Assembly (NCBI RefSeq): GCF_001677475.2
Contig: NZ_CP015229.1
Length of the DNA: 64,000 bases
Strand: one strand, 5' to 3'
From: Escherichia coli
GTDB taxonomy: Bacteria > Pseudomonadota > Gammaproteobacteria > Enterobacterales > Enterobacteriaceae
The notes beneath the pieces are model-generated. The model saw nothing but the letters and a program-made list of their open reading frames with translations. It made no database searches and was not told the origin of the DNA. Shown here piece by piece: positions 1,379 to 64,000 of the stretch (position 1 is its first letter; each line of letters begins with the position of its first letter). The position numbers and the translations under genes are program-made.

Positions 1379-1525
1379 GGTCATTCTCCTTTACGGTGAT
1401 AACCGTCGCGTAAGCAAAAAATTGCCCCATTTTTTTGGATTCCTCAGCGACAACAACTGTCGATTTTTAGTAAATATCTATCCGGTACGAAGCCCGGCCT
1501 CTTGGTATGAATGATTGGTTTGAAG

Positions 1526-1562
1526 CAAAAAATAACCGACGCTGATGAAACGTCGGTTTTTA
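1526..1562 (-). terminator. Rho-independent terminator hairpin (accgacg...cgtcggt) flanked by A and T runs, downstream of yeeY
   Basis: Inverted repeat with flanking A6/T5 runs read directly from sequence. Confidence 0.5.
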
Positions 1563-1644
1563 GTCATTTTTTGACAGCGGCGCATTGTGCCTAAATAGGG
1601 GGGAAATGACAAGAGAATGAGAGGCTTGTCATAATAATTTTTCT

Positions 1645-4312: not shown

Positions 4313-4363
4313 ATGACACGCGTTCAATTTAAACACCACCATCATCACCATCATCCTGACTAG
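4313..4363 (+). CDS. hisL: his operon leader peptide HisL (MTRVQFKHHHHHHHPD, 7 consecutive His codons)
   Basis: 16-codon ORF with His7 run read directly; too short for ORF track. Confidence 0.95.
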   Translation: MTRVQFKHHHHHHHPD

Positions 4364-4423
4364 TCTTTCAGGCGATGTGTGCTGGAAGACATTCAGATCT
4401 TCCAGTGGTGCATGAACGCATGA

Positions 4424-4460
4424 GAAAGCCCCCGGAAGATCATCTTCCGGGGGCTTTTTT
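4424..4460 (+). terminator. his attenuator terminator (gcccccggaag...cttccgggggc followed by T6)
   Basis: Perfect GC-rich hairpin plus T-run between hisL and hisG. Confidence 0.9.
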
Positions 4461-4508
4461 ATTGCGCGATTGATAACGGTTCAGACAGGTTTAAAGAGGA
4501 ATAACAAA

Positions 4509-5408
4509 ATGACAGACAACACTCGTTTACGCATAGCTATGCAGAAATCCGGCCGTTTAAGTGATGACTCACGCGAATTGCTGGCGCGCTGTGGCATTAA
4601 AATCAATCTTCACACCCAGCGCCTGATCGCGATGGCAGAAAACATGCCGATTGATATTCTGCGTGTGCGTGACGACGACATTCCCGGTCTGGTAATGGAT
4701 GGCGTAGTAGACCTTGGGATTATCGGCGAAAACGTGCTGGAAGAAGAGCTGCTTAACCGCCGCGCCCAGGGTGAAGATCCGCGCTACTTTACCCTGCGTC
4801 GACTGGATTTCGGCGGCTGCCGCCTTTCGCTGGCAACGCCGGTTGATGAAGCCTGGGACGGCCCGCTCTCCTTAAACGGTAAACGTATTGCCACCTCTTA
4901 TCCTCACCTGCTCAAGCGTTATCTCGACCAGAAAGGCATCTCTTTTAAATCCTGCTTGCTGAACGGTTCTGTTGAAGTCGCCCCGCGCGCCGGACTGGCG
5001 GATGCAATTTGCGATCTGGTTTCCACCGGTGCCACGCTGGAAGCTAACGGCCTGCGCGAAGTCGAAGTTATCTACCGCTCGAAAGCCTGCCTGATCCAGC
5101 GCGATGGCGAAATGGAAGAATCCAAACAGCAGCTGATCGACAAACTGCTGACCCGTATTCAGGGTGTGATCCAAGCGCGCGAATCAAAATACATCATGAT
5201 GCACGCACCGACCGAACGTCTGGATGAAGTCATCGCCCTGCTGCCAGGTGCCGAACGCCCAACTATTCTACCGCTGGCGGGTGATCAACAGCGCGTAGCG
5301 ATGCACATGGTCAGTAGCGAAACCCTGTTCTGGGAAACGATGGAAAAACTGAAAGCGCTGGGTGCCAGTTCAATTCTGGTCCTGCCGATTGAGAAGATGA
5401 TGGAGTGA
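4509..5408 (+). CDS. hisG: ATP phosphoribosyltransferase HisG (start at [12 protein letters not shown])
   Basis: ORF translation matches HisG; operon context. Confidence 0.95.
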
Positions 5409-5413
5409 TCGCC

Positions 5414-7796
<2,383 letters not shown>

Positions 7797-30573: not shown

Positions 30574-30612
30574 CACGCTACCGCCCCTGGCTTTACAGCT
30601 ACCAGAGCACTG
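30574..30612 (-). promoter_or_regulatory. JUMPstart element containing ops (GGCGGTAGCGTG) upstream of the O-antigen operon
   Basis: Minus-strand read: cagtgctctggtagctgtaaagccaggggcggtagcgtg, matching the remembered 39-bp JUMPstart consensus. Confidence 0.9.
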
Positions 30613-35902: not shown

Positions 35903-36090
35903 GCCTGATGCGACGCTGGCGCGTCTTATCAGGCCTACAAGACCCGAGCACAGAACCGTAGGCCGGATAAGGCGTTCACGCCGCATCCGGCATTCAGTGC
36001 CTGATGCGACGCTGACGCGTCTTATCAGGCCTACAGGTCCCGAGCACAGAACCGTAGGACGGATAAGGCGTTTTACGCCGCATCCGGCAA
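35903..36090. repeat. BIME/REP cluster: two tandem ~90-bp units (gcctgatgcgacgctg[gc/ac]gcgtcttatcaggcctaca...ccgtagg.cggataaggcg...ccgcatccggca)
   Basis: Two near-identical palindromic units read directly; ORF-track ORFs here are spurious. Confidence 0.9.
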
Positions 36091-40497: not shown

Positions 40498-40587
40498 GTC
40501 GTTACCCTTTTTCAGGCAATAGTTGGCCCTGACCGAAGCGGCCAATTTTGTTTTTGTCGTTATTTACATCGCGGTTCGGCATTCATT

Positions 40588-55028: not shown

Positions 55029-55066
55029 CACGCTACCGCCCCTGGCTTTTAGCTACCAATACACTG
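55029..55066 (-). promoter_or_regulatory. JUMPstart/ops element in the long 5' leader of the colanic acid operon
   Basis: Minus-strand read: cagtgtattggtagctaaaagccaggggcggtagcgtg (ops GGCGGTAGCGTG). Confidence 0.85.
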
Positions 55067-60407: not shown

Positions 60408-61049
60408 TTATTCAAAGAACTGACTTATTTTCGCTTTCAATATATCGATGGCGATGCGGTTTTTCCCGCCGCGCGGCACGATAATGTCCGCATATTGTTT
60501 AGAAGGCTCAATGAATTGCAGGAACATCGGGCGCACGGTTTTTTGATATTGCGCCATCACGGAATCCATTGAACGCCCACGCTCGTTAACGTCACGCTTG
60601 ATGCGCCGCATCAGACAGATATCCAGCGGGGTATCAACGAAAATTGAGAAGTTAAGTTCATCACGCAAACGCGCATCCGTCAGCAGCAAAATGCCTTCGA
60701 GAATGATGACTTTCTTCGGCTCAACCGTCACCGTTTCTTTCATACGCGTATGTTCAACATAGCTGTAAACCGGCAGGTCAATGGCCGAGCCGCGTTTCAA
60801 TGCTTGTAAATGCTCAAGCAGCAGGCTGTGATCCATCGCGCTGGGATGGTCGTAGTTGGTCTTAACGCGTTCTTCCATCGACAGATGGCTTTGATCTTTG
60901 TAATAGCAGTCTTCGGGAATTACGCCGATGTGTTCATCACCGACTTGCTCACGTAATTCACGATAAAGGGTACTGGCAATAAGACTCTTGCCGGAAGCCG
61001 ATGCGCCAGCGATACCGATAATGACGCACTGATGAGACTGATCAGTCAT
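60408..61049 (-). CDS. udk: Uridine/cytidine kinase Udk (start at [22 protein letters not shown])
   Basis: P-loop [11 protein letters not shown]; 213 aa from the chosen start. Confidence 0.95.
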
Positions 61050-61366
61050 ATATTTAGCGACCTGATTAACCTGGATGTTAGGAAGGGGGCGACGAAGCGC
61101 CAAACGCGGCAATTATAGGGATTTCATCCGCCTGATACCAGTCGAATAGCGTTGCCGCGCGCTCAGAGTAATTGTTGACGAATAATTCCCGGTGGCAAAT
61201 TACGTTGTTCAGTTTTAATGCAAGGTAAAAATTGTTATACGCAGTTGCGCAAATTATCCGCCTTTACGTCACTTTATGAGCAATTCGCATATAAAATGTA
61301 AAACTTTTGTACTAGCATAAACACAGAAACGAATACTGGCGACCTGGTCTTGCGGATAAAGCGGTA

Positions 61367-64000
61367 ATGAGCAAACAATCACAGCATGTATTAATTGCCC
61401 TACCCCACCCGCTGCTTCACCTGGTCAGTTTAGGTTTAGTCTCGTTTATCTTTACCCTTTTCTCGCTTGAGCTTTCGCAGTTTGGCACCCAACTCGCCCC
61501 ACTGTGGTTCCCGACGTCCATCATGATGGTGGCGTTTTATCGCCATGCCGGGCGCATGTGGCCGGGGATTGCGCTGAGCTGCTCGCTGGGAAATATCGCC
61601 GCATCCATCCTGCTTTTTTCCACCAGCTCGCTGAACATGACCTGGACGACCATCAATATTGTTGAAGCCGTGGTCGGGGCAGTGCTACTGCGTAAATTGC
61701 TGCCGTGGTATAACCCATTGCAAAATCTGGCTGACTGGCTGCGTCTGGCACTCGGCAGCGCCATTGTTCCGCCTCTGTTGGGGGGTGTTCTGGTTGTCCT
61801 GCTGACGCCCGGAGACGATCCTCTCAGGGCATTTTTGATATGGGTACTGTCAGAATCCATCGGCGCACTGGCACTGGTGCCGCTGGGATTGTTATTTAAA
61901 CCACACTATCTGCTGCGCCATCGCAACCCACGGTTGCTTTTTGAGTCGCTGCTCACGTTGGCCATCACACTGACGTTAAGCTGGCTTTCGATGCTGTATC
62001 TGCCGTGGCCTTTTACTTTCATTATTGTGCTGTTGATGTGGAGCGCCGTGCGCCTGCCACGAATGGAAGCCTTTTTGATCTTCCTTACCACGGTGATGAT
62101 GGTGTCACTGATGATGGCCGCTGATCCCTCCCTGCTTGCTACGCCGCGTACATACCTGATGAGCCATATGCCGTGGCTACCGTTTTTGCTGATCCTACTG
62201 CCCGCCAACATCATGACCATGGTGATGTATGCCTTTCGTGCGGAGCGCAAACACATTTCCGAAAGCGAAACCCGTTTTCGTAATGCCATGGAATATTCCG
62301 CCATCGGCATGGCATTAGTGGGCACCGAGGGACAATGGCTGCAATCCAACAAAGCACTCTGCCAGTTTCTCGGTTACAGTCAGGAAGAACTGCGCGGACT
62401 CACCTTTCAGCAACTGACCTGGCCGGAGGATCTCAATAAAGATCTGCAACAGGTTGAAAAGCTGATCAGCGGTGAAATAAACACCTATTCAATGGAAAAA
62501 CGCTACTACAACCGCAATGGCGATGTTGTCTGGGCGTTGCTTGCCGTCTCACTGGTGCGCCACACGGATGGCACGCCGCTCTATTTTATCGCTCAGATTG
62601 AAGACATTAACGAGCTAAAACGCACCGAACAGGTGAATCAGCAACTGATGGAGCGCATCACGCTGGCTAACGAAGCGGGCGGGATTGGCATCTGGGAGTG
62701 GGAGCTTAAGCCGAATATTTTTAGCTGGGATAAGCGGATGTTCGAGCTGTATGAAATTCCTCCGCATATCAAACCGAACTGGCAGGTGTGGTACGAGTGC
62801 GTGCTGCCGGAAGATCGCCAGCACGCCGAAAAAGTGATTCGCGATTCATTGCAATCGCGCTCTCCCTTTAAACTGGAATTTCGCATTACCGTGAAAGACG
62901 GCATTCGCCATATCCGCGCCCTCGCTAACCGGGTACTGAATAAAGAAGGCGAAGTCGAACGCCTGCTCGGCATTAATATGGATATGACCGAAGTGAAACA
63001 GCTTAACGAGGCATTGTTTCAGGAAAAAGAGCGCCTGCACATAACGCTGGATTCCATCGGTGAAGCCGTGGTCTGTATTGATATGGCGATGAAAATTACC
63101 TTTATGAATCCGGTGGCGGAGAAGATGAGCGGCTGGACGCAGGAAGAAGCGTTAGGTGTTCCGCTCCTGACGGTGTTGCATATTACTTTTGGCGACAACG
63201 GACCATTAATGGAGAACATTTACAGTGCCGACACCTCACGTTCCGCGATTGAACAAGATGTGGTGTTGCACTGCCGAAGCGGCGGCAGCTACGACGTGCA
63301 TTACAGTATTACGCCGTTAAGTACTCTGGACGGCAGCAATATAGGCTCGGTTCTGGTGATTCAGGACGTCACCGAATCACGCAAAATGCTGCGCCAGCTG
63401 AGCTACAGCGCCTCCCATGATGCACTGACGCATCTCGCCAATCGCGCCAGTTTTGAGAAGCAACTACGCATCCTGCTGCAAACGGTAAACAGTACACATC
63501 AGCGACATGCACTGGTGTTTATCGATCTTGATCGCTTTAAAGCGGTGAATGACAGCGCCGGGCACGCCGCTGGCGACGCTTTACTGCGCGAACTGGCGTC
63601 ATTGATGCTGAGTATGCTGCGCTCCAGCGACGTGCTGGCGCGACTCGGTGGCGATGAATTTGGTCTGCTGCTGCCAGATTGTAATGTCGAAAGTGCGCGT
63701 TTTATCGCTACACGCATTATCAGCGCCGTGAATGACTATCACTTTATCTGGGAAGGACGTGTACATCGGGTAGGTGCCAGTGCCGGGATTACCTTGATTG
63801 ATGACAACAATCATCAGGCGGCTGAAGTGATGTCGCAGGCTGATATCGCCTGTTATGCCTCCAAAAATGGTGGACGGGGCCGGGTGACGGTTTACGAACC
63901 GCAGCAAGCTGCCGCACATAGCGAACGGGCGGCGATATCGCTTGATGAACAGTGGCGGATGATTAAAGAGAATCAGTTGATGATGATCGCCCACGGTGTC
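61367..64000 (+). CDS. dgcE: Diguanylate cyclase DgcE (YegE), 5' portion only; ORF runs off the window end (MASE1, PAS and GGDEF domains present)
   Basis: Manual plus-strand translation from ATG 61367 (MSKQSQHVLIALPHP...) remains open to 64000; GGDEF motif (LARLGGDEFGLLL) near 63650; not in ORF track because no stop codon lies in the window. Confidence 0.85.
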   Translation, partial: MSKQSQHVLIALPHPLLHLVSLGLVSFIFTLFSLELSQFGTQLAPLWFPTSIMMVAFYRHAGRMWPGIALSCSLGNIAASILLFSTSSLNMTWTTINIVEAVVGAVLLRKLLPWYNPLQNLADWLRLALGSAIVPPLLGGVLVVLLTPGDDPLRAFLIWVLSESIGALALVPLGLLFKPHYLLRHRNPRLLFESLLTLAITLTLSWLSMLYLPWPFTFIIVLLMWSAVRLPRMEAFLIFLTTVMMVSLMMAADPSLLATPRTYLMSHMPWLPFLLILLPANIMTMVMYAFRAERKHISESETRFRNAMEYSAIGMALVGTEGQWLQSNKALCQFLGYSQEELRGLTFQQLTWPEDLNKDLQQVEKLISGEINTYSMEKRYYNRNGDVVWALLAVSLVRHTDGTPLYFIAQIEDINELKRTEQVNQQLMERITLANEAGGIGIWEWELKPNIFSWDKRMFELYEIPPHIKPNWQVWYECVLPEDRQHAEKVIRDSLQSRSPFKLEFRITVKDGIRHIRALANRVLNKEGEVERLLGINMDMTEVKQLNEALFQEKERLHITLDSIGEAVVCIDMAMKITFMNPVAEKMSGWTQEEALGVPLLTVLHITFGDNGPLMENIYSADTSRSAIEQDVVLHCRSGGSYDVHYSITPLSTLDGSNIGSVLVIQDVTESRKMLRQLSYSASHDALTHLANRASFEKQLRILLQTVNSTHQRHALVFIDLDRFKAVNDSAGHAAGDALLRELASLMLSMLRSSDVLARLGGDEFGLLLPDCNVESARFIATRIISAVNDYHFIWEGRVHRVGASAGITLIDDNNHQAAEVMSQADIACYASKNGGRGRVTVYEPQQAAAHSERAAISLDEQWRMIKENQLMMIAHGV

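Follow-up and report, generated by a model that had tools for sequence, protein, structure and literature searches.

The last part of the window, i.e. of the whole 64,000 nt stretch of Escherichia coli DNA that was analysed, contains the 5′ 79% of the chromosomal gene dgcE (formerly yegE, orthologue of b2067), which codes for an inner-membrane diguanylate cyclase, and the minus-strand open reading frames (ORFs) in the same interval are by-products of this gene. We assign a probability of about 0.97 to this reading. The coding sequence was identified by translation, megablast, NCBIfam models and reference annotations. It extends on the plus strand from 61367 to 64000 and comprises codons 1-878 of 1105, leaving 227 codons (684 nt including the stop codon) beyond base 64000. 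All features that define DgcE and can be visible in the window are present, and the degenerate EAL domain and the alkA side are located beyond its end. The gene is thus already known: it is the orthologue of a named and characterised gene, found at the usual chromosomal place and with the usual architecture.

An earlier note on this DNA had described a long plus-strand ORF that begins at 61367 and is free of stops up to 64000. Translation of frame +2, as obtained from (61367-1) mod 3 = 1, to the end of the window gave 878 codons with zero stops; an in-frame plus-strand stop before 64000, which the note had named as the refuting observation, was not found. As stop triplets occur at a frequency of 0.044 in the window, the chance probability of a stop-free run of 878 codons is about 8e-18. 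An in-frame TAG is located upstream at 61313-61315. As ATG, GTG and TTG are all absent between this TAG and the ATG at 61367, the latter is the first possible start and is unambiguous. In the reference annotations, dgcE begins at exactly this codon, both in E. coli MS8345, where the gene extends over 4368-7685 of locus L001 and position 4368 maps to 61367, and in K-12 (b2067), where the start at position 5267 of locus L002 maps to the same base.

The note had also recognised that the window edge truncates the gene and that the ORF track does not contain it. The latter is explained by the rule applied in ORF listing, which by design leaves out ORFs running off either end of the source, and the absence of dgcE from the track is a mechanical artefact. 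With the default threshold of at least 60 aa, eight ORFs overlapping 61367-64000 are listed and all eight are on the minus strand. The claim that every entry of the track is on the minus strand is correct for this threshold, but it does not hold at 40 aa, where three more short ORFs (53, 48 and 50 aa) are found in the interval which are on the plus strand, out of frame.

The gene had been named dgcE/YegE from the sequence, and its product a membrane-sensor and GGDEF protein; both assignments were reproduced when the interval was compared with known genes and protein families. When the region 61000-64000 was used as a megablast query, matches were obtained in 5,416 of 5,426 complete E. coli genomes, mostly with 95-99% and at best with 99.1% sequence identity, and the matching regions are annotated as 'dgcE: diguanylate cyclase' and 'udk: uridine kinase'. 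In the other 10 complete genomes, megablast found no match to the dgcE region. At least 80% of the query is covered in one place in 5,406 of the 5,426 genomes, and more than 99% of the complete E. coli genomes have the dgcE region in one piece. Three of the places that match the query sit on plasmids. The NCBIfam equivalog model for DgcE (NF007298, PRK09776) was matched with 1706.9 bits, which exceeds the cut-off of 1135 despite the truncation, and residues 1-877 were aligned to positions 1-879 of the profile (of 1111). All other diguanylate cyclase and phosphodiesterase equivalogs in NCBIfam scored far below their own cut-offs. According to NCBIfam equivalog models and reference annotations, synteny is preserved on the visible side, with udk and dcd upstream on the minus strand, divergent from dgcE. 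In K-12 MG1655, b2067 ('diguanylate cyclase DgcE') is flanked by yegH, asmA, dcd and udk on one side and by the convergent gene alkA and by yegD on the other, and the neighbours are the same in MS8345.

The domains follow each other on the plus strand. A MASE1 membrane domain (Pfam PF05231, E=5.6e-36) covers residues 19-294 (61421..62248). Hydropathy analysis revealed multiple hydrophobic segments, all of them within residues 8-291, and this pattern fits a polytopic N-terminal membrane domain. Three PAS domains are found between MASE1 and GGDEF, and three stretches were matched by the PAS model TIGR00229. The first PAS domain comprises residues 303-414 (62273..62608; Pfam PF00989/PF08447), the second residues ~452-537 (62720..62977; Pfam PAS_3, E=3.3e-11, obtained with the sub-fragment 62600-63100) and the third residues 561-672 (63047..63382; Pfam PAS_4). 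The GGDEF diguanylate cyclase domain covers residues 682-838 (63410..63880) and was matched by Pfam PF00990 over profile positions 1-160 of 161 (E=9e-46). By motif search, the active-site motif GG(D/E)EF was found to be intact (GGDEF, residues 761-765, 63647-63661). The RxxD site RSSD (residues 752-755, 63620-63631) is located five residues upstream, where GGDEF enzymes have their allosteric inhibitory site. In the full-length DgcE from MS8345, the EAL match is at residues 898-1087 and thus wholly past codon 878, the last codon of the window. The domain order MASE1-PAS-PAS-PAS-GGDEF is the full N-terminal architecture of DgcE.

K-12 DgcE (YegE, b2067, NP_416571.1) shares with the window protein not only the start codon and the divergent udk gene but also the domain order and the intact GGDEF and RxxD motifs. 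Its C-terminal 227 residues correspond to the part past the window. The proteins are identical in 874 of 878 residues (99.5%), and the four substitutions (H303R, T327S, M857I and L874I, from K-12 to the window) are all conservative. At the DNA level (96.9% identity), there are 81 differences in 2634 nt, and 77 of these occur at codon position 3 (binomial p=6e-32). The closest allele that was found is the B2-type dgcE from MS8345 (WP_001513856.1), with 99.05% DNA identity. It differs by 25 nt, 23 of them at codon position 3, and by a single amino acid: position 863 is R in MS8345 but W in the window and in K-12. As the 25 differences are spread out along the gene, a mosaic block relative to MS8345 is not obvious. 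The substitutions show the pattern that marks a protein-coding gene, with purifying selection acting on the plus-strand frame.

The eight mechanical antisense ORFs, which we judge to be non-coding, have a length of 64-148 aa and together span 61537..63994 on the minus strand (61537-61860, 61906-62352, 62615-62824, 62638-62973, 62846-63040, 63019-63219, 63499-63717 and 63599-63994). It is conceivable that these ORFs include at least one genuine antisense gene overlapping dgcE, e.g. 61906-62352 (148 aa) or 63599-63994 (131 aa). Five of the eight are open in K-12 and in MS8345 and show few amino acid changes (e.g. at 1 of 14 or at 0 of 3 substitutions), which might be taken to favour such a gene. 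However, these five share the third codon position with dgcE, and changes that are synonymous in the sense gene tend to be synonymous in antisense too. Their low divergence is a geometric by-product and is uninformative on coding, so that for these five ORFs the substitution pattern by itself cannot exclude coding. The case against them rests on a null model, on the absence of a family match and on the fact that they overlap a known gene under strong constraint. For the null model, the synonymous codons of dgcE were permuted in 500 shuffles which kept the protein sequence. Seven antisense ORFs of at least 60 aa occur inside the real fragment, compared to 6.7 +/- 1.5 in the shuffles, and the longest one has 148 aa, compared to 146 +/- 36 aa. 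As number and length equal the expectation from synonymous shuffling, the ORFs are such as the composition of the sense gene produces. A Pfam scan of all eight ORFs returned nothing significant, the only two matches (E=0.027 and E=0.083) being far below the gathering cut-offs. In the three ORFs which have their first codon position on position 3 of the sense gene, 5 of 6, 8 of 9 and 16 of 16 substitutions relative to K-12 change an amino acid, and two of the three are interrupted by stops in K-12 or MS8345. The 131 aa ORF is the one which is altered at all 16 substitutions, and it has two internal stops in K-12. The annotations of MS8345 and K-12 contain none of the eight. The minus-strand ORFs, which the earlier note had taken for antisense noise, are by-products of the codon composition of dgcE and may be disregarded. 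We consider it extremely improbable that any of them is a gene. The odds are just as low that the interval holds something new in the form of a translated overlapping antisense gene which shares the third position with dgcE (e.g. 61906-62352) or of a functionally distinct dgcE allele or promoter variant.

Two other explanations concern the sense gene itself. The gene might be intact in the window but broken downstream, by an IS insertion, a frameshift or a deletion in the last 684 nt, in which case there would be no functional DgcE. The 3′ end of dgcE is indeed outside the window, and some complete E. coli genomes carry a dgcE that is interrupted by ISEc20 or only a fragment annotated as 'MASE1 domain-containing protein'. 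Examples are NZ_CP086340.1 (H15), with dgcE interrupted by an IS110-like ISEc20 element, and NZ_CP026932.2 (H35), where dgcE is truncated and only a 5′ fragment persists. Also, the source lineage may lack close representatives among complete genomes, the best match over the last 25 kb being 97.6-97.7%. On the other hand, the sampled rows among the genomes with the query covered in one place are nearly all annotated with an intact dgcE, and the strong purifying selection over 878 codons is unlike long-standing decay. A pseudogene is thus very unlikely, although slightly less so than an antisense gene. The other explanation, that the sequence codes for a paralogous MASE1/PAS/GGDEF(-EAL) protein such as a PdeR- or DosP-type c-di-GMP phosphodiesterase, draws on the fact that PAS-GGDEF(-EAL) architectures are common and that several NCBIfam phosphodiesterase models match partially. 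The GGDEF-EAL phosphodiesterase equivalogs remained far from their family cut-offs, with 109 versus 857 bits for DosP, 109 versus 782 bits for PRK10060 and 160 versus 980 bits for DibA, whereas the DgcE equivalog passes. Furthermore, the sequence shows 99.1% DNA identity to an annotated dgcE and is syntenic with it. The paralogue reading is refuted. PdeA/YfgA and PdeF/YfgF of E. coli resemble the window protein in that an N-terminal MASE1 domain is linked to GGDEF/EAL modules (PMC6510439). They differ from it by being phosphodiesterases with the order MASE1-GGDEF(degenerate)-EAL and without the three PAS domains, whereas the GGDEF motif of the window protein is intact and the DgcE model is the only one that it passes. 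The assignment as dgcE therefore stands.

Synteny is fixed by the divergent upstream neighbour udk, which codes for uridine kinase and was assigned to 60408..61049 on the minus strand (NCBIfam NF004018, 350 bits, and annotation transfer). The mechanical ORF extends from 60408 to 61112, with a TTG start at 61112 and 234 aa. In MS8345 and K-12, the annotated start of udk is 21 codons later, equivalent to 61049 in the window, resulting in 213 aa, and the NCBIfam uridine kinase models align to the mechanical ORF only from residue ~25. The udk start in the ORF track is probably an over-extension.

The intergenic region between the divergent genes udk and dgcE (61050..61366) has 317 nt and is the putative location of the promoters of both genes. 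According to MAFFT alignment, it shows one substitution relative to MS8345 and, relative to K-12, ~10 substitutions and two 1-nt indels. This divergence from K-12 (~3%) is the same as that of the coding sequence. An ungapped comparison with K-12 had shown 34 differences and suggested a hyper-divergent promoter region, but MAFFT resolved these as a register shift between the two compensating indels. The indels are ~50 nt apart, at alignment columns 120 and 169, and most substitutions cluster in columns 132-190. The 130 nt directly before the dgcE start show a single difference to K-12. Such a clustering of indels and substitutions could reflect variable and constrained parts of the divergent promoter region. 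A simple scan of 61000-61450 for sigma-70 promoters and terminators returned one minus-strand site, which is no more than in shuffled sequences, and no promoter was assigned to dgcE. Rfam at gathering threshold returned no family for 60900-64000. The sole match in a permissive Rfam scan was to the archaeal C/D-box snoRNA sR30 at 63952-64000 (plus strand), inside the dgcE coding sequence, and was discarded as a chance match (16.7 bits versus a gathering threshold of 38, E=0.49). Thus, neither the gathering nor the permissive Rfam scan points to a known cis-regulatory or antisense RNA family at this locus.

Elsewhere in the window, several elements were identified by Rfam at gathering threshold. 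These are the His operon leader (4339-4462, plus strand), the sRNA STnc240 (1525-1599, minus strand), naRNA4, a REP-type element (35961-36031, plus strand), an algC RNA motif (40502-40551, minus strand) and two JUMPstart elements (30574-30612 and 55029-55066, minus strand). Together with the annotation of the matching genomes (wzc, cpsB, yegH, asmA), these matches identify the window as the region that comprises the his operon, the O-antigen and colanic acid loci and yegH-asmA-dcd-udk-dgcE. The last 25 kb (39001-64000) have a best match of 97.6-97.7% among complete E. coli genomes, but dgcE taken alone peaks at 99.1%, in B2-type strains. As the two values differ in this way, either close representatives of the source lineage are lacking among the complete genomes or the recombination-prone region beside the O-antigen locus has a mosaic structure.

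In macrocolony biofilms of E. coli, DgcE is the diguanylate cyclase at the top level of matrix production (Pfiffer et al. 2019, PMC6510439). The output of the K-12 enzyme needs the GGDEF motif, and its activation requires the MASE1 domain as well as the PAS region (PMC6510439). The dynamin-like GTPase RdcA contacts the MASE1 domain and acts with RdcB, and GTP has to be hydrolysed for activation; dimerisation occurs via the PAS region and the degenerate EAL domain is inhibitory (PMC6510439). DgcE is subject to rapid processive proteolysis from the N-terminus, for which membrane localisation is required (PMC6510439). The trigger phosphodiesterase PdeR senses the c-di-GMP made by DgcE; this relieves the inhibition of DgcM and MlrA and permits transcription of csgD (PMC6510439).

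We infer the activity and regulation of the window allele from these K-12 experiments, with 4 of 878 residues differing between the two proteins. By analogy to its K-12 orthologue, the DgcE of the window would make c-di-GMP on entry into stationary phase. The GTPase pair RdcA/RdcB would activate it via the MASE1 domain, and dimerisation of the GGDEF domains, mediated by the PAS region, would switch on c-di-GMP synthesis. PdeR would then sense this c-di-GMP, so that DgcM and MlrA are freed and csgD is expressed, resulting in the curli and cellulose matrix. The C-terminal degenerate EAL domain, which is outside the window, may inhibit the enzyme, and its turnover would presumably proceed by processive proteolysis from the N-terminus.

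When dgcE is dropped at the window edge, only antisense shadow ORFs are left in the interval, and these can be mistaken for genes; labelling the interval as dgcE prevents this mistake. The gene is a well-studied one, coding for the top-level diguanylate cyclase for the curli and cellulose matrix of E. coli, and the copy in the window is typical and conserved.
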